Positions 1 to 26,725 of a stretch of 64,000 nt of DNA are shown here, one piece after another (position 1 is the first letter of the stretch; every line of letters begins with the position of its first letter). The translations under genes and the position numbers were made by a program. The notes beneath the pieces were generated by a model, which was not told the DNA's origin, ran no database searches, and saw nothing but the letters and a program-made list of their open reading frames with translations. Source of the DNA: Escherichia phage vB_EcoM_IME392. The DNA lies in the sequence record MH719082.1; one strand, 5' to 3'.

Positions 1-931
1 TCACATCCAGAGTTGATCCTGGTTGGAACTCTCGACCAACATCTTCCATTACGTATTCTAGAATACTGTGATCGCTATTATAACGAGAAGCAGCATCTTC
101 AAGAGTAGCGATGTAATGCTGGAAGTAGGTACGGATCTTATACCAGGAATTAAGTGATCCGAGATCAATCGTAGTTACCGGAGCTTCATTAATGTCGTCA
201 ACATAAGCTCGGATATTACTTACCTGCTTCTTGATGTTCGACACTTCCGGATACCAGTGGAGATCATCCGTCATCACCACATAGTTGCCCATATCTACTT
301 TGAGCATAGTTGCGATGATTTCCTGGATGATCGTGAACTCCACCAGATTAACGTTAGTCAATCCCCAGATTAGATCATTACTACGGTTGAATACCGTGCA
401 GTCCAGACCACCATTACGGTACTTAAACGATAGAGCAATGTTGCAGATCATATCTGCGGTATTGATGCTGCCGATGCTGTTTACCAAACCTACATCAGAA
501 TCACGGCTGGGATCGTGAATAGTAGCCACGCACTTACGGTTACCCAGGTCAGAACGGAGGCGGTCTGTTACAGTCTGGAGTTGATCGTAGTTATACAGAC
601 GCTCACCGTAAGCACCACGCCAGGTAACCATATCATCGCTAAACATCTTAGCGCGAGGAACCATAATCGACATCCAGTTATCGATTGCATAGCCACCAGA
701 CAGTACCCACAATACTTCCCCCATAATTCCGAGGATATTGTCTTTACGTTCTGGATGAGCCATCCAACGATTAATCGGATTACTTAACTCAACTACAGCA
801 TGACCGATGGATACTACCGCCGAAGAGTTAACAGAAGTTCTGGACTTCTGCAACTCACCAGCCTTATCCATAGTATTGATGCTGTTAACCAGGATTTCAG
901 TATTACTGTTACCGCGAATTACCGAGATCAT
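1..931 (-). CDS. Thymidylate-synthase-superfamily enzyme, probable deoxypyrimidylate hydroxymethylase (C-terminus lies beyond window edge)
   Basis: Not in the ORF track because there is no stop in the window. My translation of the minus strand from ATG 931-929 stays open for 310 codons (MISVIRGNSNTEILV...). TS-fold motifs: WRGAYGERLY, NRKCVATIHDPSRD, Cys segment ADMICNIALSFKY (Cys codon 445-443), RSNDLIWGLTNVN, TDDLHWY. The start overlaps the kinase stop as ATGA (928-931). Confidence 0.75.
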   Translation of the reverse strand, partial: MISVIRGNSNTEILVNSINTMDKAGELQKSRTSVNSSAVVSIGHAVVELSNPINRWMAHPERKDNILGIMGEVLWVLSGGYAIDNWMSIMVPRAKMFSDDMVTWRGAYGERLYNYDQLQTVTDRLRSDLGNRKCVATIHDPSRDSDVGLVNSIGSINTADMICNIALSFKYRNGGLDCTVFNRSNDLIWGLTNVNLVEFTIIQEIIATMLKVDMGNYVVMTDDLHWYPEVSNIKKQVSNIRAYVDDINEAPVTTIDLGSLNSWYKIRTYFQHYIATLEDAASRYNSDHSILEYVMEDVGREFQPGSTLDV

Positions 932-1650
932 TTAGAGTCCTTACGCACTGAATCAATAGACTTAACTGCAGAGGACAGTAACTCCAGACGGGCCTCCTGA
1001 GGGATCATACCAGATGGCTCATTCAGGATCATAATACCTTTACCAGTATTAGTAAAACGAGCTGTGATTGATCCAGGATACACCGGATGATTCAGAGTTA
1101 CAGAATTACACAACGCAGCACCGAATCGCTCCTCGTAGGCACGCATAGTTACCTTAAGGAGAGTAGAACTGACTGCTACAGAGTATTCCGGATCAACAAC
1201 ACGGAAGTTATTGTCCTCAATACTCTTATCCTTCGTATTGAAGAACAGAGTCATGTTATAATAATCAATAGACTCGTTACTGAGACGTAATGCCTCATCA
1301 CGAGCTTCCTGGCTAGCAAACATACTGTTATGCAGCAGGAAGTAAACGTACGAATCGAATACCGCACGATCACTGACGATCAACTCGCCACGATTGTAGG
1401 CATCCTTGAACATCTGAGTTCGCTGACGAATAAGACGCAGCTGGAACTCTACCGCTTCCATAGGATCTTCCACAGCTAAGCGCAGAATATCCATATGGGA
1501 TGTTACTCCCAGAGGAAGATGGTCACGAGTCTGTACTGCACGGAAGGTACATTCGGTTGATTCTTCCCAGCCTTTAGCCAGAGTAGATTTACCGGTACCC
1601 TGCGCACCAGACATAATTACACTGTAGCCTGGGATACTATAGTCTCTCAT
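928..1650 (-). CDS. P-loop kinase of deoxynucleoside/dNMP-kinase type (candidate hm-dNMP kinase or 5-hmdU DNA kinase)
   Basis: Walker A SGAQGTGKSTLAKG. IVSDRAVFDSYVYF resembles the ERS..D..F motif of dNK/TMPK-type kinases. I prefer ATG at 1650 (GGAGAGAATA-ATG) over the TTG at 1662 used by the track. Confidence 0.6.
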   Translation of the reverse strand: MRDYSIPGYSVIMSGAQGTGKSTLAKGWEESTECTFRAVQTRDHLPLGVTSHMDILRLAVEDPMEAVEFQLRLIRQRTQMFKDAYNRGELIVSDRAVFDSYVYFLLHNSMFASQEARDEALRLSNESIDYYNMTLFFNTKDKSIEDNNFRVVDPEYSVAVSSTLLKVTMRAYEERFGAALCNSVTLNHPVYPGSITARFTNTGKGIMILNEPSGMIPQEARLELLSSAVKSIDSVRKDSK

Positions 1651-1682
1651 TATTCTCTCCAATTAAGAATCTTTCCCACATT

Positions 1683-1739: not shown

Positions 1740-2711
1740 CTAGCTAAACTTATACCAGCGAGGTCTCATACGGATCTCGTGATTCAGTTTATGTAGTTTC
1801 GAGAATTCGCAGAATGAGTTGGTGAACATCTGACGAGTATAGAACCGCTCATCCTCCGGCATGAAGTGGAACCATTTCTCCGGCTCCCATGCATACCCGA
1901 AATGAGCACATATCTCTTTGATGTTCTGATACCACCATTCCACGAACATCTGGTAGCCGCAAGGAGGGTTCTGGTCATTAAGCATGTACCATACCCCATC
2001 CTGCGTCCCGGGTCCACATACGATAGCATCGTTATCTGTGTACGCAGTCTCTTTAGAGTAGGACATAGTTGCCCAGCATTGATATGCCATGAACGGACCT
2101 AATCCAGATACCTGTAACAGATGCTCGATGGCCTCGGTAGCGAACGGAGACTTCCATGCCAGTAAGATAGGATCACTGTAGGTCTTCACCAGATAGGCTC
2201 TGGCAGCTACACTGTACTTAATATCCTCTGGACATACTTCATTAGCCATCTTAACTGCTGTGCTAAGGAAGTAGGCATTTGATTGCTGTGGAGCAGTGAA
2301 CGGAGGACCATCCTCATAACGACGTAGCTCTTCACGACCCATGTTATGTATGTCGTCATAGCTCATCTCATAAAGAGGAAGGACTCTGCGGAAGCGATCC
2401 ATATATGAATCACCACGGTTTATCATCTGGAAGAGTACCACGTTAAGCGCCTTACTCTCCCAGCTTAGGGAATCGTTCTCCAGAATGTTCTTGATAGCCC
2501 ATACTGTTTCACGATCGTGCTTACGGAACACGTTAGTGAATTTAAACTTACTAATCCACTTATGTTCTGTCCACGGAGGAGGTAGCTTAAGTATCTCCTT
2601 CTTATAATAAACCTCAGTCCGCTCGCGGTTATACTCCACATACTCACGTAGCTCCTCGGGATTTATCATCCCGAGTAACCCGTCGAAGTGCAAACCTAAC
2701 GGTTTAGACAT
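1740..2711 (-). CDS. Conserved 323-aa protein; tentative aGPT-Pplase-like (alpha-glutamyl/putrescinyl thymine pyrophosphorylase family) DNA hypermodification enzyme
   Basis: Clean ORF with a TAATG overlap to the upstream gene (2709-2713). The segment PPPWTEHKWISKFKFTNVFRKHDRETVW matches what I recall of aGPT-Pplase-type proteins (memory only). It sits between a DNA-glucosyltransferase-like gene and a P-loop kinase plus TS-like pair. Confidence 0.4.
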   Translation of the reverse strand: MSKPLGLHFDGLLGMINPEELREYVEYNRERTEVYYKKEILKLPPPWTEHKWISKFKFTNVFRKHDRETVWAIKNILENDSLSWESKALNVVLFQMINRGDSYMDRFRRVLPLYEMSYDDIHNMGREELRRYEDGPPFTAPQQSNAYFLSTAVKMANEVCPEDIKYSVAARAYLVKTYSDPILLAWKSPFATEAIEHLLQVSGLGPFMAYQCWATMSYSKETAYTDNDAIVCGPGTQDGVWYMLNDQNPPCGYQMFVEWWYQNIKEICAHFGYAWEPEKWFHFMPEDERFYTRQMFTNSFCEFSKLHKLNHEIRMRPRWYKFS

Positions 2712-3790
2712 TAAAGAATACCTTCTTTGGTAAAGTAGTCTATTACTTCATCCTGAAGTTCTTGTGCGTAATCCTTGCGCAGATATAGATTCTCATACTG
2801 ATGTTTCAGCAGAGCATCACGATCTTTCAGTTTCTCTGCAATCTCCGCATTACTGGAGACGATCAGAGGAGCCAGTAGCTCTTCGGGGACGCCGCTCCGG
2901 ATTATTGTTCCAGCAGCATCTTTATCCACCAGCATCAGAGTACCAGAGCTCAGGTATTCGTAATAACGGTTAGGTGGGCTGGTATAGAACGAATTACTGG
3001 AGTTCCAGTCTTCGATAAGCAGTACCGCTGCATATTTAGCCACTTCATCCAGCATCTCTGACAGCTTAAACTTAGGCAGCCAGTTAATCGGAGCAGCAGG
3101 TCCCAGCCACTTACGTTCTTTAGGATCCAGCTCTTCCCAGTTTTCCTGCTCGTAGCCGTCAAATCCTGCAAGACCACCAGTATGTTTAGCGATGGACATC
3201 TGAGCTTTGTAGCTCGGCACCGACATAAACAGTTCCAGACCATCTTGCTGGGAGAAGTACTGAGTGAACTTATGGAAGCGGCCTTCACGAGCAGCACCGT
3301 AATACAGCAGGCTATTGTCCGGCTTATCTGACGATCCATAGCGAGGCTTACGACCAGGAACGTAGGTAAGACGGTTCCAGTTAATGTGATGATAGTTCTC
3401 TTCGCTAGGAGAATACTGATTACCCCAGGAAGTACGTTCAAATGCTGCTACAACTTTAAATACAGTAGCTGCGGTGATGTGTCTCCACTGCGGACCCTGG
3501 ATACGCATCTTAGACGAGTAATCCTGTCCAATCCAGTAGAACTTAGCTCCGACATCTGCCTGGTCTACCCAGAACTTATACATCTCGTCGCGGAACTTAC
3601 AGAAGGTAGGAACACCATTGATGGCGATAATCACGTCATATTTAGTGCCATCTTCCATAGCCTTAACGAACTTAGGAGTATCGTCCAACAGGTCAGCTTG
3701 AAGTCCGTAGGCTAACCAGGAAGCCAGAGTATTACTGGCAATGATGGATTTATCGCTGCATGGCGAAAAGTTAGTTACTGCAATCTTCAT
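2711..3790 (-). CDS. T4 beta-glucosyltransferase-like DNA glycosyltransferase (GT-B, GT63-like)
   Basis: 359 aa versus 351 aa for T4 BGT. Colinear matches to my recollection of T4 BGT: MKIAVTNFS / MKIAIINMG; YDVIIAINGVPTF / YDRLIVVNSSINF; LLYYGAAREGRFHKF / DVIYGGSFRSGQRESK; AAVLLIEDWNSSNSF...TLMLVDKD / IAALIIGDKNYNDNF...AVMLIDEE. Confidence 0.6.
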   Translation of the reverse strand: MKIAVTNFSPCSDKSIIASNTLASWLAYGLQADLLDDTPKFVKAMEDGTKYDVIIAINGVPTFCKFRDEMYKFWVDQADVGAKFYWIGQDYSSKMRIQGPQWRHITAATVFKVVAAFERTSWGNQYSPSEENYHHINWNRLTYVPGRKPRYGSSDKPDNSLLYYGAAREGRFHKFTQYFSQQDGLELFMSVPSYKAQMSIAKHTGGLAGFDGYEQENWEELDPKERKWLGPAAPINWLPKFKLSEMLDEVAKYAAVLLIEDWNSSNSFYTSPPNRYYEYLSSGTLMLVDKDAAGTIIRSGVPEELLAPLIVSSNAEIAEKLKDRDALLKHQYENLYLRKDYAQELQDEVIDYFTKEGIL

Positions 3791-3818: not shown

Positions 3819-3849
3819 TTAACAGCCTTTTAGCTCATCAAAGAAGCGA
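3819..3849 (-). promoter_or_regulatory. Conserved promoter-like motif, copy 2
   Basis: Minus strand reads TCGCTTCTTTGATGAGCTAAAAGGCTGTTAA followed by ATT. The upstream half overlaps the stop of the GT2 gene. It lies about 25 nt before ATG 3790. Confidence 0.55.
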
Positions 3850-4872
3850 GTTAGCTGATGCCCAGCTCAGCCAGTTATCGTTGAGATCGGTCAGGTAGGA
3901 GTAATCCTTATTCAGACCGAATACAGTACGGTTAGTTCCGTCGAACTTCATTATACCAGCGCCAGGAGCTCTGATGATTGCATCTTCCGTAGCCAGACAA
4001 TATTCTTTCAAGTATTCCTGGATGTTGGGACGAATACGACGGAAGGAACTATCTGCCGAGTCATAGTGGAACATATCTGCGCAGTGCCACTGTACGTAGG
4101 ATTTATCCGGACGGCTGAGTAGTTCATTACGGGTAACCATATCTTTAGGAGAATATCCCAGCTTAGCTACAGTGACTTCGTGAATACCTCCACCATTAGA
4201 CGAAGTATCCATCAGCCAGTTTTCGTCCCAGTAGAACGAAGTACCAGTACCAGTTACCTGTCCAACCTTCCAGCCCATCGCCATACCTTTAAACAACAGG
4301 TAGCAATCTTCTCCTACGGTCAACTGTTGGAAGGTTATATCGAACAGCCAGAACATCTTCTCACTGGTCTTGACCATGATACCGAGGTCAGTGGCCGGAG
4401 CAGTGTTATTATGTGACTGACGATCGCATAGTTCAACAATCTTGTAGTTACGATTCTTGAAGCTACGGACGAACGCCATCTCAAACTCAGATCCCTCGAA
4501 GTCTATAACGGAACGGTCCAGATGGAAAATATTATCTGCGAACCAGACATCATCATCCACGAAGTAGCAGATGTCTGGACACCAGTTCTGATCCTCCATT
4601 AAAATCCATGCCTTATCAAGAGCATGAGCTCGGATTCTTCCGATTACCGGATTATCGTACTTAGGACGATGCCAGAAATTAAACTGCTCGTCCCCACCGA
4701 ACTGCTCTTCCAGAACTGCCTTATCTTCTTCGGAGGCATCCTGCATAAAGTAGAAGAAACGATACTCGATAGAGTCGTCAGTCTTCTTAGCATCTTTGAA
4801 CGACTGAATCTGACGGAGTACCGACTTCATACGATGATAGGTTGGGATGATAAAAGCCACTTTGGTAGTCAT
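3838..4872 (-). CDS. Family-2-type (GT-A) glycosyltransferase
   Basis: N-terminal VAFIIPTYHRMKSV (the GT2 signature IPTYNR-like) and a DXD-like YFVDDDVWF. Only 6 nt separate it from the upstream deacetylase gene. Confidence 0.7.
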   Translation of the reverse strand: MTTKVAFIIPTYHRMKSVLRQIQSFKDAKKTDDSIEYRFFYFMQDASEEDKAVLEEQFGGDEQFNFWHRPKYDNPVIGRIRAHALDKAWILMEDQNWCPDICYFVDDDVWFADNIFHLDRSVIDFEGSEFEMAFVRSFKNRNYKIVELCDRQSHNNTAPATDLGIMVKTSEKMFWLFDITFQQLTVGEDCYLLFKGMAMGWKVGQVTGTGTSFYWDENWLMDTSSNGGGIHEVTVAKLGYSPKDMVTRNELLSRPDKSYVQWHCADMFHYDSADSSFRRIRPNIQEYLKEYCLATEDAIIRAPGAGIMKFDGTNRTVFGLNKDYSYLTDLNDNWLSWASANSLL

Positions 4873-4878
4873 ATTTAT

Positions 4879-5490
4879 TTATCCAATTTGACGAACTAAG
4901 CGAAACCCTTCGGCGTACGGCCACTGGGCAGAATATCCACGTAAGGTGGCTAGAGCTAAGATACTCTGGGTATCTCGGTCTGACTTAATCTGGGAGTCGA
5001 ATCGTCCCATAGCCTGGCACTTACACTCAATATCGTCCTTATTCAGACGCTCGAAGTAATTAGGTTCCATCTGACCGAACTGGGTCAGGGACTCGGCATA
5101 CTCATATTCCAGGATAAGCCAGTTATACGCTCGGAGAGCTACACGAGCAGCATGATTAACTAGTTGATGGTCCTGGTGTAGGCTACTGAACGGAATATAG
5201 ACTACATCCGGCCTGATTTTAGCAACATAGTCCGCAATATCCTTAGCCAATTGCGGAATATCCTTCTGAGTCATACCATCGCCTGTGGAGGCATCGTTAC
5301 GCTCCAGGCAATGTACTTCTTTGATATTCGGATAGACACCGAATGCTGCTTCGGCTTCACCACGACGGGTCTCGTCCGGAGCAGTTACTTCGAGGATGAA
5401 AAATTGGTCGTCGCGGAATTTGCTCATAATACCTCCGCAACCCAGAATCTCATCATCGTGATGTGGGCTGATAATCAATCGTGACTTCAT
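4879..5490 (-). CDS. PIG-L/LmbE-family N-acetylglucosaminyl deacetylase
   Basis: LIISPHHDDEILGCGG (PIG-L motif HPDDE) and a later HQDHQLV metal-binding-type motif. RBS GAGGA lies before ATG 5490. Confidence 0.8.
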   Translation of the reverse strand: MKSRLIISPHHDDEILGCGGIMSKFRDDQFFILEVTAPDETRRGEAEAAFGVYPNIKEVHCLERNDASTGDGMTQKDIPQLAKDIADYVAKIRPDVVYIPFSSLHQDHQLVNHAARVALRAYNWLILEYEYAESLTQFGQMEPNYFERLNKDDIECKCQAMGRFDSQIKSDRDTQSILALATLRGYSAQWPYAEGFRLVRQIG

Positions 5491-5557: not shown

Positions 5558-5588
5558 TTAACAGCCTTTTAGGTCATCAAACAGGAGG
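5558..5588 (-). promoter_or_regulatory. Conserved promoter-like motif, copy 3
   Basis: Minus strand reads CCTCCTGTTTGATGACCTAAAAGGCTGTTAA followed by GGT. It overlaps the 3' end of the transporter gene and lies upstream of the 5515-5541 hairpin. Confidence 0.5.
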
Positions 5589-6959
5589 AGTTTCCTTAGC
5601 CAAGAATACTTTAGGTACAAAGATCTTGAGGAACCCGAATAGAATACACAATACCCCAATCAGTACCGGAACAGCCGATACAGCTACCAGAGTCTTCGTT
5701 ACAGTTACTACGTCACCACCTGCCCAGTTAAGTGCAGCAGCAACTACACCCATGCTTACAATCCAGAATACACGAGTTCTAGGAGCGGTCATGGACTCTA
5801 CCGTAATACCTGCTGAGTCATGACCTGTAATAAAGAACAGAATCACAGACACGAGGGTAATTACTGAGAATATCCATCCGCCTGGGAAATTAGCCAGAAG
5901 CTGGAAGATATCCTGAGCACCATGTTGCAAACCGGCTACACCGAATACGGTAAACCATACGTTACTGATAATGGTAGGGAACAGTACACATCCCAGGATC
6001 AGTTCGCGAATAGTACGGCCGTAAGAGATACGTGCCACAAACGCTCCGACGAATAATGCCCAACCTACCCAGGCTGCATAGTAAGCATAAGGCCAGCTAG
6101 CCAGCCATTGCTTCTCTTCAGCAGTACTGCCAATGTTTACCGACATAGGAATAATCTGGAGCAGATAGCTGCCAGAATAGGTGATGGTCTTCCAGAGGTA
6201 TTCAAAGAATGTACCACTTACAGCAACGAATGCCATAATAGATAGAGCTACGATTACATTATATCTGGATAACCACTTAACCCCACGATCGACACCAGTT
6301 ACGGCACTAAGTACAGTGCCCAGAGTCAGGAGTGCGATAATGGTGTAAGGACCAACATCCACACCAAGGAACTCTTTAAATCCAGAACTGATCGGGCCTA
6401 CTGCGTAGACGAACGACAGGGTTAAGCCTATGATGGTCGAGAAGAGTAAGCTTATCGTATTAAGGTTATTCAGAGTTCGGGACTTGAATAACTGATTAAG
6501 CGGACGGTCTTCACCACGTACATGCAGTAAGTACCCGAATGCCACCCCTACGACTGCATACACAGCCCATGCATTAAGTCCCCAGTCAAAGAAGGTAGTT
6601 ACCATATTCTGACGTTCGGACATACCCTCCTGATGATGGTACATAGGTTCGAGTACGCCATAATAAATCATGGATACACCCATACCGGTACTAAACATCA
6701 TAGAGTAATAGGTAAAGCGATTGTATTTCGGAGTACCTTTACCCAGCTTAATGTTACCATGTTTGCTGAATACAAAGAATGCCAGGAACGCCAGGAAGAT
6801 CAGCGAAGACCAGGTAAATATGAATCCATACTGAGATATAAATACAGACTTACTCCAGTCCATTACAGCACCAAACTGGGTGGGAGCAAACATAATGGCG
6901 AGTACAATACCCACCGTTACCAGCACCGTCCCCCAGGTAACTACCTTTGAATCGGACAT
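5577..6959 (-). CDS. BCCT-family (betaine/carnitine/choline-type) secondary transporter
   Basis: 460 aa, hydrophobic throughout with about 11-12 predicted helices by eye. FSKHGNIKLGKGTPKYNRFTYYSMMFSTGMGVSMIYYGVLEP matches the BCCT N-terminal block (RLG...F..SWFAMLFAAGMGIGL.FWGVAEP). WPYAYYAAWVGWALFVGAFVARISYGRTIRE matches the BCCT signature W.....W..W.PFVG.FIARIS.GRTIRE. Confidence 0.75.
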   Translation of the reverse strand: MSDSKVVTWGTVLVTVGIVLAIMFAPTQFGAVMDWSKSVFISQYGFIFTWSSLIFLAFLAFFVFSKHGNIKLGKGTPKYNRFTYYSMMFSTGMGVSMIYYGVLEPMYHHQEGMSERQNMVTTFFDWGLNAWAVYAVVGVAFGYLLHVRGEDRPLNQLFKSRTLNNLNTISLLFSTIIGLTLSFVYAVGPISSGFKEFLGVDVGPYTIIALLTLGTVLSAVTGVDRGVKWLSRYNVIVALSIMAFVAVSGTFFEYLWKTITYSGSYLLQIIPMSVNIGSTAEEKQWLASWPYAYYAAWVGWALFVGAFVARISYGRTIRELILGCVLFPTIISNVWFTVFGVAGLQHGAQDIFQLLANFPGGWIFSVITLVSVILFFITGHDSAGITVESMTAPRTRVFWIVSMGVVAAALNWAGGDVVTVTKTLVAVSAVPVLIGVLCILFGFLKIFVPKVFLAKETPPV

Positions 6960-7972: not shown

Positions 7973-8713
7973 TTACTTTAATTCGGAGAGATCTGCGATC
8001 TTCACCTTAGCTGATACATCCCAGATTCCTTCACCAAATCCGGTATCTTCCAGCAGCTTAGGCACTTCACGTTTCTGTACCTTAGATTGCTCGTACTTAA
8101 GCAGAGGAATATTACCGGTCTTATCTGATTGATCCCACAGATAAGTAGCAGCACCGATGTTATCGAACAGTGCGAGATCTGGATTAAACTGGGTAAGGAG
8201 TCGGCAGTCCCAGTGAGACTTATGTTCCTCGAAAGGATTAGTTTCCGTGCCACGCTGACGATACTCATAGTTAGGAGTACCGATCACGATTTTAGCCTTA
8301 GACTGGAATAGCTTAGACAACACCATAAGCCCGTCTTCGCTATCCAGATGCTCCAACACATCCAGCCAGATAATAGTGCCGAATTTATCCAGCTCTTCAA
8401 TAGGAAGATCTTTCAACAGTTCAACGATATTGCAGATATAGATATCGCTATATACATTTACACTGCCTTTGATGTAGTCTTCGCAGATGTCCAGACCTGT
8501 AATCTGACCATCGAATCCTGCGTTACGGAGAGCAAGACCAATTTCTCCACGACCTAATCCCATATCCAGGATTGGCCCGGAGATAATTTCGTTACGGAGC
8601 ATCCATTGGAGAAAGTGCTTCTGGACTAAGTAGGAGGTGCCTCCGTTGCCCAGTGAAGCCTTCGTGACCTTAGTACCAGGAACGAAATTACACTCGATAT
8701 GTTTACCAAACAT
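7973..8713 (-). CDS. Class I SAM-dependent methyltransferase
   Basis: Motif I ILDMGLGRGEIG, GLDICEDY, and the IIWLDVLEHL block typical of Methyltransf_11/23-type enzymes. Confidence 0.75.
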   Translation of the reverse strand: MFGKHIECNFVPGTKVTKASLGNGGTSYLVQKHFLQWMLRNEIISGPILDMGLGRGEIGLALRNAGFDGQITGLDICEDYIKGSVNVYSDIYICNIVELLKDLPIEELDKFGTIIWLDVLEHLDSEDGLMVLSKLFQSKAKIVIGTPNYEYRQRGTETNPFEEHKSHWDCRLLTQFNPDLALFDNIGAATYLWDQSDKTGNIPLLKYEQSKVQKREVPKLLEDTGFGEGIWDVSAKVKIADLSELK

Positions 8714-8817: not shown

Positions 8818-10065
8818 TTACAGTTTACCGATCATCTTCTGAATCATCTCGTCAGAAGTCTGATTCTCTACCTTAGCACGACGTTCTTGCAGATTAGCAA
8901 TGCGGTCGTCGTGATCTTTCTTACGTAGCATGCTGATGCTACGGCTAAGGCAGGAATTCAACACTTCCTGGGTAATACCGAGAGCTTTGATGATCTGAGC
9001 ATCAGACTTATCCTGCATAACCAGCTCGCCCACTTTAGGAAGAATCTGGTAAATCTCGATGTCTCGGTCAATCTTCTTAAGAGACTCAGTCTTATGGACG
9101 GAGAATGCCTGATTGTAGAGAGCCATCGTGACTGCAATCCAGTCGCGAATACCCATCGTCACCAGTTGACCATTGTAGGCTACCTGGATACGATGCGAGC
9201 GGTTCATGTAAGCAATATTCATGCATGCTTCGTGAACCTCGTCCATATCGATGGTCCTGATACGGGGAGCCTTCATTACTCGGATATAGATCTTATCCTT
9301 GGACATGTTCTTGACCAGGATCTTACCTTCTGATAACCACTTATTCAGGAACCCGATGCGAGGAGTAATTACCTCACCAGACCCGATGATGTCGATGGTG
9401 TCGGTATTGACGCGAGTTACCTTAAGGGTAAGGCCTAAGCGACCTACACCAGTTTCCCATAAGGACTTAAGGTCTGACTTACTCGGCACGATATCATACC
9501 CGTACTGAGCCTTAAGCAGATTATAATCGTCATGCTTGTAGGCTTCCAGCAGACTCTCGTAAGTGAATGCTGGGATACGGGACTGAATACCAGTAGCCCA
9601 TGAGAAGGTACCATACATCAGAGCATACGGAATAGGCACTGGAAGGTATGCGTATTCCATCTTCTCTTCACCTTCAACCTGCGGAACATAGTCCGCTAGA
9701 CCGAAGTAGTATTCTGCACGATCTTCGTTCAGGCCAACCTTCGTGTAACGAGGAGCAGCACCAGGAACTTCTTCCAGCAACTTAACGCCGAAAGATCCCT
9801 GACCATCAATAGCACCGATGCGAGCAAGACGGGAAATAGTCCCATCGATAGACTGGTCACCGAATGGGTGTAGCGACTGAGTTTCTGAGATAGCGCTCAG
9901 AGTCCCCACCAGCTTCCCACGAGCAATGCTATTCAGAGCCATGTAGATACGGCGCTGGGCAGGAATCAGGCCATCGATACCGGGAACTACACGATGAAGA
10001 GCACAATACACACTGTAGTCAGTGTAGTTCTTGGTGATGAATTCAGAAATCTTTACCTGTTCCAT
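8818..10065 (-). CDS. DNA topoisomerase II, DNA-cleavage subunit (T4 gp52-like / GyrA N-terminal-like)
   Basis: DGLIPAQRRIYMAL (GyrA/ParC motif DGLKPVQRR) and AAPRYTKVGL (active-site Tyr context). Adjacent to the ATPase/Toprim subunit. Confidence 0.85.
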   Translation of the reverse strand: MEQVKISEFITKNYTDYSVYCALHRVVPGIDGLIPAQRRIYMALNSIARGKLVGTLSAISETQSLHPFGDQSIDGTISRLARIGAIDGQGSFGVKLLEEVPGAAPRYTKVGLNEDRAEYYFGLADYVPQVEGEEKMEYAYLPVPIPYALMYGTFSWATGIQSRIPAFTYESLLEAYKHDDYNLLKAQYGYDIVPSKSDLKSLWETGVGRLGLTLKVTRVNTDTIDIIGSGEVITPRIGFLNKWLSEGKILVKNMSKDKIYIRVMKAPRIRTIDMDEVHEACMNIAYMNRSHRIQVAYNGQLVTMGIRDWIAVTMALYNQAFSVHKTESLKKIDRDIEIYQILPKVGELVMQDKSDAQIIKALGITQEVLNSCLSRSISMLRKKDHDDRIANLQERRAKVENQTSDEMIQKMIGKL

Positions 10066-10067
10066 AA

Positions 10068-12053
10068 TTACTCCTTAAACAGACCGTAGTCTTCTAACAG
10101 TTGGCGACGAGCACGAGATGAGTACAGCAACTTACGAGCGGCATCGAGATGCTCTTCATTATCATCGTAGGTTACCTGGATAAGACGGCGAGATTTCGAG
10201 TTAATGATGAATTGCTCAGTTTCTTCTTCGGTATATGACCCGAGTCCCTTACGACGTTCAACATAGCACTTATCGAAGTCGATCTTATCCTTCTCGTCAG
10301 CGTAGTAGAACTCGGTCTTCTTACCATTCTTAACTACATAGAACGGAGCTTCGAGTTTATACAGACGACCATCTTTAACCAGCTCTGGAGCATGGATAAG
10401 GAAGATTGAGCTAATGAGGTTACTGATGTGCTGACCATCAACATCAAGGTCGGTCATAATGATGATCTTACCGTAACGAGCCTTATCTATGTCAAACATC
10501 TGGCCCATACCACACCCGATAGTATTGATGATCGCCAGCAGCTCTGGGTTATTCACGAATTCCATGATATCCATGGAAGCCGAGTTACGCATCTTACCGC
10601 GAAGAGGAAGCACCGACTGATACTCATTACGCAACTTGATGATATTACCAGAAGCAGACGGACCCTCTGTGATGAACAGCTCACGAAGATCCCAGCGGTC
10701 GGACGGAGATTCGTAGATCTTCGCCATGTCACCATCCATAGCGGCCTTACGGTGATCATCACCCATCACCAGCTTAGACTTAATGAAGTCCATGTTGGAG
10801 AGTTTATTCAGGCTAGCTTTGTAAGCCAGGATCTTGGCAATCAGAGCATCAAAGAATTGCTTATTCTTCTCGTATACCAGGCTGAAGTAGAATGTGAGCT
10901 GACTCAGGCATTCTTTCTCGTAGAAGAAGTACTCGCCATAATAGTCGTAATCGTTGATTTGCTCATCATTCAGCATCAACTTATTCTTAGCCATGATTTC
11001 CCAGTCGCTCCAGGACATACCGAGGCCAGTTAACTTCTCCTTAGTCTGCGAGGAGAATGCTGTACGATAGCTGGAGAAGACGTTAGTGAACACGATCAAT
11101 CCCAGCTTAGCATCACCAACAGTGATAGCAGAGTTAACTTTATTCAGCATACCGCCGAGCGCTCTCGTGACCAGCTTCTCATGCAGACCACCATGCGGGT
11201 TATTGATCAAGTTGATCATGTCTACATGGGAGTAGGACATATTCTTATCAGAGTAGCCCAACTCACCAGAGAAGGTCAGACGATCGTTGAACGAGAACTC
11301 GTACTTGACTGTAGTATCGAGGAACAGCTTCTCATTCTCTGCAACATCACGACGAAAATCCCAGGTAGCCAGAGCTTCACCATTAACGGTGATAGTTGCA
11401 TCACGACCAATCAGGGAGATCTTCAGAGGAACAGTATCCACATCAGACCAGATGCTGCGGTACAGAGTCGCATCAGGCACCATGAAGACTGCTGTGGAGA
11501 AGTCGGTAGCCTTTAACGTCTCGAGCACTTCGTCTGGGAAGCCATCGTCGTGAAGATCATTCAGATCATTGATCACTCCATCGATTTCCATAACACCACG
11601 GCGGAATCCGAGGACATAGAACTGACCTGGCTCCATAGGGATGTGTGCCTTATCTCCCTGCATTACGCGACGGATTACAACGAATCGCTCGGACACTGCG
11701 TTAACAGCGGAGCTACCTACGCCATGGGTACCAGAGGTAATTTCACGGTTATCGCCCAGCTTAGAGCCAGCATGCAGATCTGTTACAGTAGAGAACAGAA
11801 TAGATTTAGACGGATCTTCCGGATCAGCGTAGATAGGAATACCACGTCCGTTATCGGTAACCAACTTGTAGGCTTCACGGTTAATGATCTGCACTAGGTT
11901 AGCATAACCATTAAGCAGCTCGTCCTCCGCATTATTGATTATTTCCTGGAGAGGATGAGTGTAGTTAATCGGGTCACCGAGATACATGGATACGTTCTGA
12001 CGAACGTTATCAGGGTAACGCAATCTTGTGATTTCAATAGCATGTTCTGACAT
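10068..12053 (-). CDS. DNA topoisomerase II, ATPase + Toprim subunit (T4 gp39-like / GyrB-like)
   Basis: NNAEDE, DNGRGIP, GTHGVGSSAVNAVS (GHKL ATPase blocks), ITEGPSASG and MTDLDVDGQHI (Toprim). Confidence 0.9.
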   Translation of the reverse strand: MSEHAIEITRLRYPDNVRQNVSMYLGDPINYTHPLQEIINNAEDELLNGYANLVQIINREAYKLVTDNGRGIPIYADPEDPSKSILFSTVTDLHAGSKLGDNREITSGTHGVGSSAVNAVSERFVVIRRVMQGDKAHIPMEPGQFYVLGFRRGVMEIDGVINDLNDLHDDGFPDEVLETLKATDFSTAVFMVPDATLYRSIWSDVDTVPLKISLIGRDATITVNGEALATWDFRRDVAENEKLFLDTTVKYEFSFNDRLTFSGELGYSDKNMSYSHVDMINLINNPHGGLHEKLVTRALGGMLNKVNSAITVGDAKLGLIVFTNVFSSYRTAFSSQTKEKLTGLGMSWSDWEIMAKNKLMLNDEQINDYDYYGEYFFYEKECLSQLTFYFSLVYEKNKQFFDALIAKILAYKASLNKLSNMDFIKSKLVMGDDHRKAAMDGDMAKIYESPSDRWDLRELFITEGPSASGNIIKLRNEYQSVLPLRGKMRNSASMDIMEFVNNPELLAIINTIGCGMGQMFDIDKARYGKIIIMTDLDVDGQHISNLISSIFLIHAPELVKDGRLYKLEAPFYVVKNGKKTEFYYADEKDKIDFDKCYVERRKGLGSYTEEETEQFIINSKSRRLIQVTYDDNEEHLDAARKLLYSSRARRQLLEDYGLFKE

Positions 12054-13373: not shown

Positions 13374-16139
13374 CTACTCTTCCATAAACGTAGTTACGTT
13401 ATTGGAAAGGTAGGCACCAATTTTAGTGTTATATCTCTGGAAGGTAGGAACATGGGTAACCAGGATGATGTGGTTAACCGGAATGTCCTGAAGAGCATCA
13501 ATAGCTACGTCCAGAGTATTTACGTCCAGATTTCGCAGAGACTCATCCAGAATCAGACATCCTGCTCCCTTACTGAGGCTAATCAGCTTACCGATGAACA
13601 GTACGTCCACCAGGTTCTGTTGGCCACCAGACAGATCAGCATACGGAATTAACAGATCTCCAACTTTGTATTGAACATCGAAGTCAATCTTGATAGCTCC
13701 GTTAGCCTGTTCACGAACAGTAGAAATTACCATATCTCCACCAGTCATCATAGCAGCTACTTCTTTGAAGATAGAAGCAGTTACATCGCCGCTATTAGTG
13801 AACAGGCTCTGATACTCAACCAGTTTCTGATACTTAGGCTGGAGAATAGCCAACTGCGCATTAGCATCGTCGAGTTTCTTCTGAGCCTCGTCCATACGAG
13901 TCTTCAGACTACGAAGAGTAGCCATAGCGCCGATGGTAGAGTTGATCTCGATTAGCTCCTGCTCCAGCTTAGCCACTTCCTCTTCGAGAACCTGCACGGA
14001 AGGATAGGACTTAGTCTTACTCTTAAGCACTTCCACGTCGCTATTAACGGTATGGATCTTCTGACGAAGAGTAGCCACATCGTTCAGCAGACCGGACTTA
14101 CGTCTTAGTTCGGCTAATTCACTATTCTTAACGTTAAGCTTCTCTCTGAGTTCATCAGACTTAGGAGCCTTACTGATCTCAGCCTCGACAGCATCCAGCT
14201 TAGTAACAGATGCAGATCCTTGGGTTTCGAGATCATCCATCTTAGCTCTGATAGACTTCTCTACTTCTTTAATGTCCTCTTCCTTAAGGGACTGCTTACA
14301 GGTTGGGCACGTAGTAGGGATGTTGCGCATCTCGGTCTCGAGCTTAGTTAACTCCTTCTCTAAGCGAGTTAACTCATTAGTCAGAGATTCACTCTGATTA
14401 TGCAGTGACCGGATGTTACCTTCTACTTCAGATACCTCGGCATCCAGAGTAGTGATTTCGTCCCGGACCTTAGCGAGAGCGGAGTTAACCTCCTCTTCGT
14501 TAAAGTCAATCTTGAACGCAGCCAGAGAATCTTCCAGCATCTGGAGACTCTGTAGCTTACTGTCCAGATTACCCAGCTCACGGATCTTCTGACGAATATC
14601 ATCAATCTGTGGCAGGATTCGAGACTTATCTTCTTCCAGATTACTCACGTCCTTAAGTTTGGAGAAGTCGTGATCCTCCATGGTCTTAAGGACTTCTTCC
14701 TGAGCAGTTACCTGGGTCTGATAGTTACTGATCTCTACCTTACAGTTCTTAGCCGAGGCCTTTGCGACAGCTTCGTACTGGTTAATTACGGTAAGACCGA
14801 GCATCTTCGTGATCAGGTTAATACGTTCGTTGAATCCGAACTGGCTCAAGAACGGAGGACTATTCTGGGAACGATACAGAAGATCGAAGTGTTCGAGGAA
14901 TGGCAACATCTCCCAGAGCTTAGCTTCACGCTCTCGGATACTACCACCATCCATCTCATCACCATCAATCCAGACTCGGAAAGTCTGACCACCAGCCCAA
15001 TGGCGACTGATCAGGAATTCACGACCACCATACTCTAGCATCACTTCTACCAGAAGATGGTCTTGACCGCGTCTCACCACGTTACGAGGACTGTCGCTAC
15101 CAGTTAAGCAGTAGTTAAGAGCTCTCAGCAACGAGGATTTACCGTTACCAGTTTCGCCGTAGAGATAAGTAAGACCTCGCTTAAAGTTAAGCTCCAGCTT
15201 ATCAATACTGCGGAAGTTCTCTACCTTAATACTATTCAAGGTAAAGTTAAGGTCGAAGACCGACTCGGAACGATCAACGTGGGTAGACATCTCATCATGG
15301 ATATCTTTAAGACCCTTTGCCCGAACGACTTTGTCGATTACTTCTTCAACATCGATAGATTTAACTGAGATGCGTGAAGCATCCATCATCTGAGCTCTTT
15401 CACGAACTACCAGATGAGGGTAATTATCCATACCGGCAGGTACTTCATCTTCCCAGTACATCTTGAGGTATTTGTAGGAGTCAGACTCTACCGGAACCCG
15501 CTGCCAGGAAAGATCTTTAAGATCCAGCAGCACCAAGCTACCGTCCTGACAGTCACCCATCCCGTGAGGAATAGGTACGTTAACCGAGTGGGTATGACCG
15601 ATGCTGATAGGACGATGGATGTCACCAGCAAATCCCAGCTCATACTTAGTATCGTCGAACTCCTGACCAAACATAGAGGACAGAGTAATGTGGCCAATAA
15701 GGACATCTACTTTATCTTCGATAAAACTGAAGTCCTGGGTAGGACGCCAGTCGCTAAAGGCGACCTTACGGCCACCTAAGTTCAGGATTTTACCATCGAC
15801 ATATTCTGCCTTACCAGCGAGGATCGGCACCAGTGAGTTCTGGTAGTGATCAGCATCTACTGATTTGGAGTTAATGTCGTGGTTACCCAGAATATAATAA
15901 ATCTCGGTAAACTGCTCACCGAGGATCTCCATAAACTGGGATGTAGCGTGTGCAATTTTAGGCTCATGCTGAGCCTTATGCACTAAGTCGCCAGCGATAG
16001 ACAGACAGGTTACTTTATGTTCCCTGCCCATCTCCGCCATACGATGAGCTAAACCGATAAACTGCTTTAAGCGAAACCCTTCCGAGTTATGCTGCTGAAA
16101 TTCATGGATATGAATATCAGCTACGATCAACATTTTCAT
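13374..16139 (-). CDS. Fused Mre11/SbcD-like nuclease + Rad50/SbcC-like ATPase (T4 gp47+gp46 equivalents in one 921-aa chain)
   Basis: N-terminus has phosphoesterase motifs ADIHIH, AGDLVHK, LGNHD, GHITL, GDIHRP, GHTH. From about aa 300: Walker A YGETGNGKSSLL, long coiled coil, zinc hook CPTCKQ, signature LSGGQQ, Walker B CLILDE. Confidence 0.85.
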   Translation of the reverse strand: MKMLIVADIHIHEFQQHNSEGFRLKQFIGLAHRMAEMGREHKVTCLSIAGDLVHKAQHEPKIAHATSQFMEILGEQFTEIYYILGNHDINSKSVDADHYQNSLVPILAGKAEYVDGKILNLGGRKVAFSDWRPTQDFSFIEDKVDVLIGHITLSSMFGQEFDDTKYELGFAGDIHRPISIGHTHSVNVPIPHGMGDCQDGSLVLLDLKDLSWQRVPVESDSYKYLKMYWEDEVPAGMDNYPHLVVRERAQMMDASRISVKSIDVEEVIDKVVRAKGLKDIHDEMSTHVDRSESVFDLNFTLNSIKVENFRSIDKLELNFKRGLTYLYGETGNGKSSLLRALNYCLTGSDSPRNVVRRGQDHLLVEVMLEYGGREFLISRHWAGGQTFRVWIDGDEMDGGSIREREAKLWEMLPFLEHFDLLYRSQNSPPFLSQFGFNERINLITKMLGLTVINQYEAVAKASAKNCKVEISNYQTQVTAQEEVLKTMEDHDFSKLKDVSNLEEDKSRILPQIDDIRQKIRELGNLDSKLQSLQMLEDSLAAFKIDFNEEEVNSALAKVRDEITTLDAEVSEVEGNIRSLHNQSESLTNELTRLEKELTKLETEMRNIPTTCPTCKQSLKEEDIKEVEKSIRAKMDDLETQGSASVTKLDAVEAEISKAPKSDELREKLNVKNSELAELRRKSGLLNDVATLRQKIHTVNSDVEVLKSKTKSYPSVQVLEEEVAKLEQELIEINSTIGAMATLRSLKTRMDEAQKKLDDANAQLAILQPKYQKLVEYQSLFTNSGDVTASIFKEVAAMMTGGDMVISTVREQANGAIKIDFDVQYKVGDLLIPYADLSGGQQNLVDVLFIGKLISLSKGAGCLILDESLRNLDVNTLDVAIDALQDIPVNHIILVTHVPTFQRYNTKIGAYLSNNVTTFMEE

Positions 16140-26104: not shown

Positions 26105-26180
26105 TGGTGGTCCATACTGGTTTCGAACCAGTGACCAAGCGATTATGAGTCGCCTGCTCTCACCACTGAGCTAATGGACC
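26105..26180 (-). tRNA. tRNA with CAU anticodon (elongator Met, or Ile2 if lysidinylated)
   Basis: Hand-folded cloverleaf: GGTCCAT-TA-GCTC-AGTGGTGA-GAGC-A-GGCGA-CTCATAA-TCGCT-TGGTC-ACTGG-TTCGAAA-CCAGT-ATGGACC-A-CCA. All stems are perfect. G1-C72, so not an initiator. Confidence 0.9.
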
Positions 26181-26649: not shown

Positions 26650-26725
26650 TGGTACTCCCTACTGGATTCGAACCAGTGACCGTCGGTTTAGAAGACCGAT
26701 GCTCTATCCTCTGAGCTAAGGGAGC
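26650..26725 (-). tRNA. tRNA-Arg (UCU)
   Basis: Hand-folded cloverleaf: GCTCCCT-TA-GCTC-AGAGGATA-GAGC-A-TCGGT-CTTCTAA-ACCGA-CGGTC-ACTGG-TTCGAAT-CCAGT-AGGGAGT-A-CCA. G1-U72 wobble, other stems perfect. Reads the rare AGA codon. Confidence 0.9.

Follow-up and report, generated by a model that had tools for sequence, protein, structure and literature searches.

Does a phage gene that resembles thymidylate synthase make thymidylate, or does it make the precursor of a modified base, and is that base then a cytosine or a uracil derivative? This question is raised by positions 1 to 931 of a 64,000-nucleotide stretch of DNA from Escherichia phage vB_EcoM_IME392 (MH719082.1; the whole stretch is hereafter the window), which encode a homolog of thymidylate synthase (TS) on the minus strand. 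A preliminary description of the sequence placed the protein in the TS superfamily, regarded its active site as non-canonical, and considered it impossible to tell whether the phage makes 5-hydroxymethylcytosine (hmC), 5-hydroxymethyluracil (hmU), or another base. Comparisons of the encoded protein with its homologs lead us to conclude that the gene very probably encodes a deoxyuridylate hydroxymethyltransferase, also termed deoxyuridine monophosphate (dUMP) hydroxymethylase or 5-hydroxymethyl-dUMP (5-hmdUMP) synthase (EC 2.1.2.8). Many phages put a modified base in place of thymine, and the conversion of dUMP to 5-hmdUMP is the reaction with which this replacement begins. The gene is an ordinary member of a known phage family of 5-hmdUMP-forming enzymes, with no new chemistry or fold. 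Its location is as follows:

1..931, minus strand: predicted dUMP hydroxymethylase gene, long-form TS homolog; codons 1-310 of 357

On the reverse strand, the frame opens with an ATG at 931-929 that is preceded, 7 nt upstream, by a Shine-Dalgarno-like AAGGA. This ATG forms an ATGA junction (928-931) with the TGA stop of the kinase gene before it, to which the TS homolog is translationally coupled. Translation of positions 2-931 (930 nt of the 5' part of the gene) yields 310 of the 357 codons with no stop before base 1, and the frame is missing from the program-made list of open reading frames (ORFs) solely because it crosses the end of the window. The protein thus runs off the window, as had been described, and the advice to extend the sequence to the left was correct for a minus-strand gene, an orientation that the description omitted. 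A metagenomic protein (P0001) of 357 amino acids (aa) is identical to all 310 residues visible in the window, and the ortholog in phage EP_H11, which shares 93% nucleotide identity across the first 6 kb of the window, is likewise 357 aa (96% protein identity). The last 47 codons therefore lie to the left of the window. Homology to ThyA stops near residue 240; the claim that the protein continues at least 100 aa beyond the usual TS C-terminus holds for the full-length 357-aa protein but not for the window, where ~70 extra residues are visible. Ratios of nonsynonymous to synonymous substitution rates (dN/dS) of 0.10-0.13, calculated among the window, EP_H11, and a metagenomic relative (L011; 88% nucleotide identity), indicate that the gene is under purifying selection.

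The Pfam model Thymidylat_synt matched residues 20-239 of the TS homolog (E 3e-12; score 46.6 bits, cutoff 24.3), PHROG 3676 matched the protein as well (E 1.3e-70), and an exhaustive search of cluster representatives recovered 2537 relatives at E <= 1e-10, most of them about 350 aa in length. The exhaustive search was used in place of a word-indexed protein search, which gave 7 matches. These matches, together with the dN/dS values, argue that the frame is not a chance ORF. They also bear out its assignment to the TS superfamily, yet the NCBIfam ThyA equivalogs scored far below their cutoffs, in agreement with the earlier view that the protein is not a canonical ThyA. An AlphaFold2 model, built with 110 representatives of the long-form family as input, had a predicted local distance difference test score (pLDDT) of 96.4 and a predicted template modelling score (pTM) of 0.95. 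Comparison of the model with known structures, reported in two unlabelled columns, gave 32.3 and 307 for MilA (a CMP 5-hydroxymethylase), 22.8 and 221 for the flavin-dependent deoxycytidine monophosphate (dCMP) monooxygenase 9iqc, about 20 and about 230-240 for ThyAs, and 17.7 and 209 for the dCMP hydroxymethylase of T4. The long C-terminus noted previously is indeed present, unlike that of ThyA, and forms a MilA-like helical domain that begins near residue 245 and is common to the whole long-form family; ThyAs align with the protein across only some 235 residues. In MilA this domain is located away from the active site (PMC5175136). Because the same helical domain is known in MilA, the extension is no oddity of the gene in the window.

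The type of reaction is suggested by the residues that surround the catalytic cysteine. This residue, Cys163, is located within ADMICNIA, and translation confirms that its context is I-C-N (MICN) and not P-C-H. Three residues before it is Asp160 (D160-M-I-C163), at the position of Leu143 in ThyA. In an alignment of the 110 long-form representatives (A1), which is the basis of all column counts given here, this column is Asp in 108 sequences and the catalytic Cys is present in all 110. An Asp three residues upstream of Cys has been proposed as a hydroxymethylase signature, with activation of the substrate water as its role, and T4 dCMP hydroxymethylase (dCH) that bears D145N is inactive (PMC6400193). 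Similarly, Leu at the ThyA L143 position is associated with a methyl product and Asp or Glu with a hydroxymethyl product (PMC13326640). As judged from these correspondences, Asp160 indicates a hydroxymethyl rather than a methyl product. Flavin-dependent 5-hydroxy-dCMP synthases are marked by D169N in ThyA numbering (PMC13326640). The corresponding Asp186 is kept in the TS homolog and is Asp in 110 of 110 family members; the protein is therefore not a flavin 5-hydroxylase. The combination of Asp, Asp, and Asn at columns 160, 186, and 195 was detected in 105 of the 110 representatives and also in the homologs from ViI, PhiW-14, and a phage of the SPO1 genus. Ile before the catalytic Cys is a minority variant (7/110), and the ViI enzyme likewise reads MICN. 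The active site is consequently less unusual than was first thought, since a Cys-Asn context with an Asp three residues before the Cys is the norm for phage hydroxymethylases. It had been proposed that canonical ThyA catalytic residues in an alignment, together with complementation of a thyA mutant, would mark the protein as an ordinary thymidylate synthase; the residues found fit a dUMP hydroxymethylase and not ThyA.

We then considered which base and sugar the enzyme would use. Alignment of the 110-sequence family profile to E. coli ThyA with hhalign (probability 99.5%, E 2.5e-23) paired ThyA C146 with C163, Y94 with Y108, R166 with R183, S167 with S184, D169 with D186, G173 with G190, and N177 with N195, and showed replacement of L143 by D160, H147 by N164, and W80 by A94. 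The key residues of the TS homolog are Arg31, Glu72, Tyr108, Arg132, Asp160, Cys163, Asn164, Arg183, Ser184, Asp186, Gly190, Asn195, His225, and Tyr227. The RS.D block is present as it had been quoted (RSNDLIWGLTNVN, residues 183-195; FNRSNDLIWGLTNVN, residues 181-195, and FNRSNDLIWGLTNVNLVEF, residues 181-199, in wider context), and the reference motifs cited with it are right (GLPFN in E. coli ThyA and GFRND in T4 gp42). The reading by eye of the specificity residue as either Val or Asn does not hold, since gapped alignments agree on Asn195, and not on Val194 or Asn193. Thr192 is a one-residue insertion in HMMER alignments (to MilA and to a ThyA), in the MAFFT alignment, and in the hhalign alignment to E. 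coli ThyA, and in these four alignments Asn195, the second Asn of TNVN, pairs with ThyA Asn177 or MilA Asp186. The MAFFT alignment with reference sequences was in error around Tyr94 and at the gp42 N-terminus, where hhalign and the invariant columns of A1 were used in its place. Asn was found at column 195 in 107 of the 110 representatives and Asp in 3, whereas columns 193 and 194 are variable. An ungapped pairwise hhalign alignment to T4 gp42, which sets Asp179 opposite Val194, was rejected as a guide because it ignores the family-wide insertion and this pattern of conservation. It is this ungapped register that accounts for the ambiguity between Val and Asn, the one-residue insertion having misled the reading.

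An Asn at the same spacing (nine residues after the Asp) is present in the enzymes of ViI (RSQDVLWGMSSIN), PhiW-14 (RSGDMLFGTGSIN), and the SPO1 genus (RSNDLHWGTFGAN). TS and the SPO1 dUMP hydroxymethylase have Asn at this column, whereas MilA, BcmA, and T4 CH have Asp (PMC5175136), and Asn at the ThyA N177 column denotes dUMP and Asp denotes dCMP (PMC13326640). By this published rule, Asn195 specifies a uracil substrate. The choice between hmC and hmU, which had been held to be undeterminable, is thereby settled in favour of uracil. Regarding the sugar, a Ser/Arg pair denotes deoxyribose and an Ala/Lys pair ribose (PMC5175136). The TS homolog has Ser184 in its R-S-x-D block and Arg132 at the position of ThyA Arg126', which together indicate a deoxyribose substrate. 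Three of the 110 representatives in A1 (P0062, P0121, and P0150) have Asp at the specificity column and keep Asp160 and Asp186. These three are predicted to be dCMP (or CMP) hydroxymethylases nested in a clade of proteins like dUMP hydroxymethylases.

The relatives of the TS homolog are consistent with these residue-based assignments, in that it is closer in sequence to enzymes of hmU phages than to ThyA or dCMP hydroxymethylases. BLASTP searches matched the enzymes of ViI (1.8e-56), the SPO1 genus (5e-36), and PhiW-14 (7e-33), whereas neither E. coli ThyA nor T4 gp42 was matched at E <= 10. The homolog in Acinetobacter phage Ab1-TPeters is 48% identical, those of ViI-type Ackermannviridae are 40-42% identical (E about 1e-50), and that of Ralstonia phage RP13, the best full-length phage match after EP_H11, is 34% identical across 89% of the length of the TS homolog. 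The hypermodifications of ViI, M6, PhiW-14, and SP10 have been shown experimentally to derive from 5-hydroxymethyldeoxyuridine (5-hmdU) by way of TS homologs (PMC5889632; PMC8989533). The ViI enzyme (Vi01_060c / orf66), designated a dUMP hydroxymethyltransferase by Lee et al. 2018, is alike over residues 9-240 at 40-42% identity, is also long (346 aa), and shares the MICN context, the D..C motif, the one-residue insertion, and the Asn nine residues after the Asp (RSQDVLWGMSSIN). ViI has no other TS homolog, and experiments have shown that the modification of its DNA derives from 5-hmdU (PMC5889632). The two C-terminal domains, however, do not align in sequence. PhiW-14 gene 230, annotated as deoxyuridylate hydroxymethyltransferase, and the enzymes of the SPO1 genus (phi18 gp135, SPO1 gp29 type) are each 33% identical to the TS homolog and have the same catalytic and specificity residues. 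They share a D..PCN-type and RS.D....G...N pattern, with P-C-N in place of the I-C-N of the window enzyme, and they are of the long form (357-383 aa) with a C-terminal helical region. A deoxynucleoside monophosphate (dNMP) kinase follows, or is associated with, these genes. In SPO1-type phages hmU is itself the end product; the locus in the window, by contrast, carries genes for post-replicative modification. MilA of Streptomyces rimofaciens (PDB 5jnh/5b6d) is 21% identical; it functions in bacterial secondary metabolism and not in the synthesis of phage DNA precursors, and it and BcmA, which have an R-A-N-D block, have nothing but the fold, C-terminal helical domain included, in common with the window enzyme.

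Between about 8.7 kb and base 1, every gene is carried on the minus strand. The genes that accompany the TS homolog in this run, and the gene that follows it in relatives, are as follows:

928..1662, minus strand: 244-aa P-loop kinase with Walker A motif GAQGTGKST; its TGA stop overlaps the ATG of the TS homolog
1740..2711, minus strand: HMUDK_hel (5-hmdU DNA kinase helical-domain family) protein of 323 aa (Pfam PF18723, E 3.2e-35, score 122 bits, cutoff 25; PHROG 2396)
2711-3790, minus strand: 359-aa ORF with a weak Glyco_trans_1_2 match (E 0.02)
3838-4872, minus strand: 344-aa ORF, between the HMUDK_hel and PIG-L genes
4879-5490, minus strand: PIG-L/LmbE-type deacetylase (E 7e-14)
5577-6959, minus strand: full-length BCCT (betaine/carnitine/choline) transporter (Pfam E 1e-92)
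7973-8713, minus strand: S-adenosylmethionine (SAM)-methyltransferase-like protein (sub-threshold Pfam matches around 1e-4)
Left of the window, in relatives: YfbR-like HD 5'-deoxynucleotidase (8173-8772 of L001 in EP_H11, minus strand; 3167-3766 of L011, plus strand), with the same pairing as PaMx11 gp51/gp52

Members of the HMUDK_hel family are markers of gene clusters for thymidine hypermodification, the target of which is 5-hmdU in DNA. The member in the window is homologous to PaMx11 gp50 (phmmer E 5.5e-11) and matched 371 phage records, mostly of Ackermannviridae; a PDB sequence search gave no match. The local order in PaMx11 is related (P-loop gp49, helical-domain gp50, TS homolog gp51, HD protein gp52). 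In the window and its relatives the order is HMUDK_hel, kinase, TS homolog, then HD nucleotidase, unlike ViI, in which the order is 5-hmdU DNA kinase (5-HMUDK), TS homolog, dnk, and dUTPase and the downstream hypermodification genes differ. In both EP_H11 and L011, the HD nucleotidase follows the TS homolog directly, just left of the window, and is itself followed by a helicase and then a PolA of about 1095 aa. This nucleotidase likely depletes thymidine monophosphate (dTMP) in a thymidine-exclusion scheme. Genes for a dUTPase and a DCD-type dCTP deaminase are likewise present in EP_H11, and no second TS homolog was found in the window or in EP_H11. Collectively, the context of the TS homolog is the standard toolkit of an hmU phage, comprising dUMP supply, hydroxymethylation, phosphorylation, and dTMP removal.

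Kinases of two kinds could be coupled to the TS homolog, and the identity of the 244-aa P-loop protein matters because 5-HMUDK has been reported as undetectable in the EP_H11-type phage group (bioRxiv 10.1101/2025.03.26.645540). The protein matched Pfam AAA_28 (2e-9), dNK and Thymidylate_kin weakly, and PHROG 2107 ('thymidylate kinase'), and the top Foldseek PDB matches to its AlphaFold2 model (pLDDT 87) were all deoxynucleoside or thymidylate kinases. No similarity to ViI dnk was detected, and a PDB sequence search returned no match. ViI gp67, a verified 5-hmdU DNA kinase, is located directly upstream of the ViI TS homolog. In profile comparisons, the 244-aa protein shares only the Walker A motif with ViI gp67 and PaMx11 gp49, and on this ground a split 5-hmdU DNA kinase in which it would be the kinase half was disfavoured. 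The predicted fold, which resembles deoxynucleoside and thymidylate kinases, and the similarity to DNA kinases in Walker A only, lead us to favour a nucleotide kinase over a 5-hmdU DNA kinase; the modelled protein is a probable 5-hmdUMP (dNMP) kinase. Homologs were identified in three phage records (EP_H11, Acinetobacter Ab1-TPeters, and RP13), and in Ab1-TPeters the homolog also adjoins the TS homolog.

The residues needed for each step of a dUMP hydroxymethylase reaction are conserved, with roles that we infer from T4 dCH, MilA, and ThyA. The phosphate of dUMP would be bound by Arg31, Arg183, Ser184, and Arg132', its 3'-OH would be held by His225 and Tyr227, and uracil O4/N3 by Asn195. The thiolate of Cys163 would attack C6 of dUMP, and C5 would add to the iminium form of 5,10-methylene-tetrahydrofolate. 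Abstraction of the C5 proton by Tyr108 and water, and departure of tetrahydrofolate (THF), would yield an exocyclic 5-methylene intermediate. In place of the hydride transfer of ThyA, a water activated by Asp160 would then add to the methylene, giving 5-hmdUMP and THF rather than dihydrofolate. The coupled kinase and a host nucleoside diphosphate (NDP) kinase could convert 5-hmdUMP to 5-hmdUTP for incorporation by the phage PolA, while the dCTP deaminase, dUTPase, and HD 5'-deoxynucleotidase seen in EP_H11 would supply dUMP and deplete dTMP. Once in DNA, 5-hmdU would provide a handle for post-replicative hypermodification by products of the adjacent genes.

Alternative assignments of the TS homolog were weighed against these data. 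The EP_H11 GenBank record annotates the ortholog as 'thymidylate synthase', PHROG carries the same label, and a bona fide dTMP-forming enzyme would agree with the Pfam Thymidylat_synt match and with conservation of the Cys, Arg, Ser, Asp, Asn, His, and Tyr of the dUMP site. Such an enzyme is nonetheless extremely improbable here: ThyA Leu143 and Trp80, which form a hydrophobic gate, are replaced by Asp160 and Ala94, P-C-H by I-C-N, and the C-terminal tail that closes over folate in ThyA, where hydride transfer yields the methyl group, by a MilA-like helical domain. Furthermore, NCBIfam equivalogs scored 29-44 bits against cutoffs of 108-405 (e.g., 39.5 against 327), roughly one-tenth of what they require, the nearest relatives are enzymes of hmU phages, and the gene has HMUDK_hel as a neighbour and, in relatives, a 5'-deoxynucleotidase. 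NCBIfam has no model specific to dUMP hydroxymethylase. A cytosine enzyme, either a dCMP hydroxymethylase of the T4 gp42/MilA kind or a flavin-dependent 5-hydroxy-dCMP synthase such as RB69 gp48, would share the superfamily fold but is very improbable, since four gapped alignments place Asn195 at the specificity column, where MilA (Asp186), T4 (Asp179), and RB69 have Asp. Asp186 is kept where the 5-hydroxylases carry Asn, and Ser184 and Arg132 are of the deoxyribose type, in contrast to Ala176 and Lys133 of MilA. The Ser-x-Tyr motif of T4 gp42, which has no C-terminal domain, is absent (the TS homolog reads Gly106-Ala107-Tyr108), the neighbouring HMUDK_hel family works on 5-hmdU and not hmC, and no genes of the hmC glucosyltransferase type were recognised in the window.

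An enzyme that uses dUMP and methylene-THF but in which some nucleophile besides water traps the exocyclic methylene, or whose product is otherwise not 5-hmdUMP, would begin, at the level of the nucleotide, the synthesis of a longer side chain like those in DNA of the SP-15/YerA41 type. Several observations lend this idea some appeal: EP_H11-type phages belong to the SP15-like lineage with a PolA fused to uracil-DNA glycosylase (UDG), the second-best full-length phage match is RP13, whose modification is unassigned, Ala159 takes the place of the family Lys beside Asp160, and two adjacent ORFs are lineage-specific orphans. With the exception of position 159, however, the residues near C5 match the hmU-phage consensus, the TS homolog is 40% identical to the ViI enzyme with an identical MICN context, HMUDK_hel in the operon implies 5-hmdU in DNA as the substrate of a later step, and the chemistry would be without precedent in the family. 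We regard it as very improbable. The assignment as a dUMP hydroxymethylase is itself opposed by certain observations. The Ser located two residues before the catalytic Tyr, a signature of T4 dCH, is Gly106 in the TS homolog (Gly is the family majority at this position, with a consensus of WRGAYG), and the Lys that typically precedes Asp160 is Ala159, a state found in 4 of the 110 representatives. PDB searches turned up no crystal structure of a dUMP hydroxymethylase, and the roles proposed for Asp160 and Asn195 are transferred by analogy from T4 dCH, MilA, and ThyA. Finally, SP-15 and YerA41, related phages with SP15-like polymerases, have longer C5 side chains, the biosynthesis of which is unsolved, so that another trapping nucleophile is formally conceivable.

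With the TS homolog taken as a dUMP hydroxymethylase, the rest of the operon raises the matter of what becomes of 5-hmdU in DNA. The EP_H11-like lineage has genomes of about 111 kb and an SP15-type PolA, and two 2025 papers group EP_H11 with phages whose PolA is SP15-like and UDG-fused, and predict that T is modified in the DNA; in one of them the EP_H11 ortholog (WBU87640.1) is tabulated as the TS variant required to make 5hmdUMP (PMC12686479; bioRxiv 10.1101/2025.03.26.645540). The 359-aa and 344-aa ORFs had no significant Pfam, PHROG, or NCBIfam match and, in a tblastn search of 50,697 other phage records, were found only in EP_H11, which makes them candidates for lineage-specific modification enzymes. 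The PIG-L and methyltransferase-like genes hint at an N-acetyl-sugar or amine-tailoring step in a putative hypermodification. The BCCT transporter is encoded in the same minus-strand run as the thymidine-modification genes and, in that position, could import the group that is appended to DNA. It is possible, albeit doubtful, that the TS homolog opens the way to a hitherto undescribed hypermodification of thymidine in the EP_H11-like lineage of E. coli phages. We are similarly tentative in proposing that the operon (HMUDK_hel, the two orphan ORFs, PIG-L, the SAM-methyltransferase-like protein, and BCCT) elaborates 5-hmdU. In a more radical version of this proposal, the TS homolog itself may make a product other than 5-hmdUMP.

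Other genes were noted elsewhere in the window. Two adjoining type II topoisomerase genes (8818-12053, minus strand) encode subunits of 415 aa (GyrA/ParC-like) and 661 aa (GyrB-like). In a 921-aa ORF (13374-16139, minus strand), an Mre11-like metallophosphoesterase domain at the N-terminus is joined to a Rad50/SbcC-like ATPase with a zinc hook; the ORF looks like an SbcD-SbcC fusion. Genes for tRNA-Met(CAT) (26105-26180, minus strand) and tRNA-Arg(TCT) (26650-26725, minus strand) are located within some 2.4 kb devoid of ORFs of >= 100 aa.

For the gene itself, what is gained is a corrected annotation, dUMP hydroxymethylase in place of the 'thymidylate synthase' of GenBank. This annotation predicts that a 5-hmdU-derived base takes the place of thymidine in a phage of E. 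coli. Such a base would be expected to protect the DNA from restriction enzymes, and possibly from some CRISPR systems, and to make it hard to sequence or amplify, with a bearing on phage therapy. More interesting than the enzyme is the adjacent operon, which the TS homolog gene flags as a candidate for an uncharacterised hypermodification.

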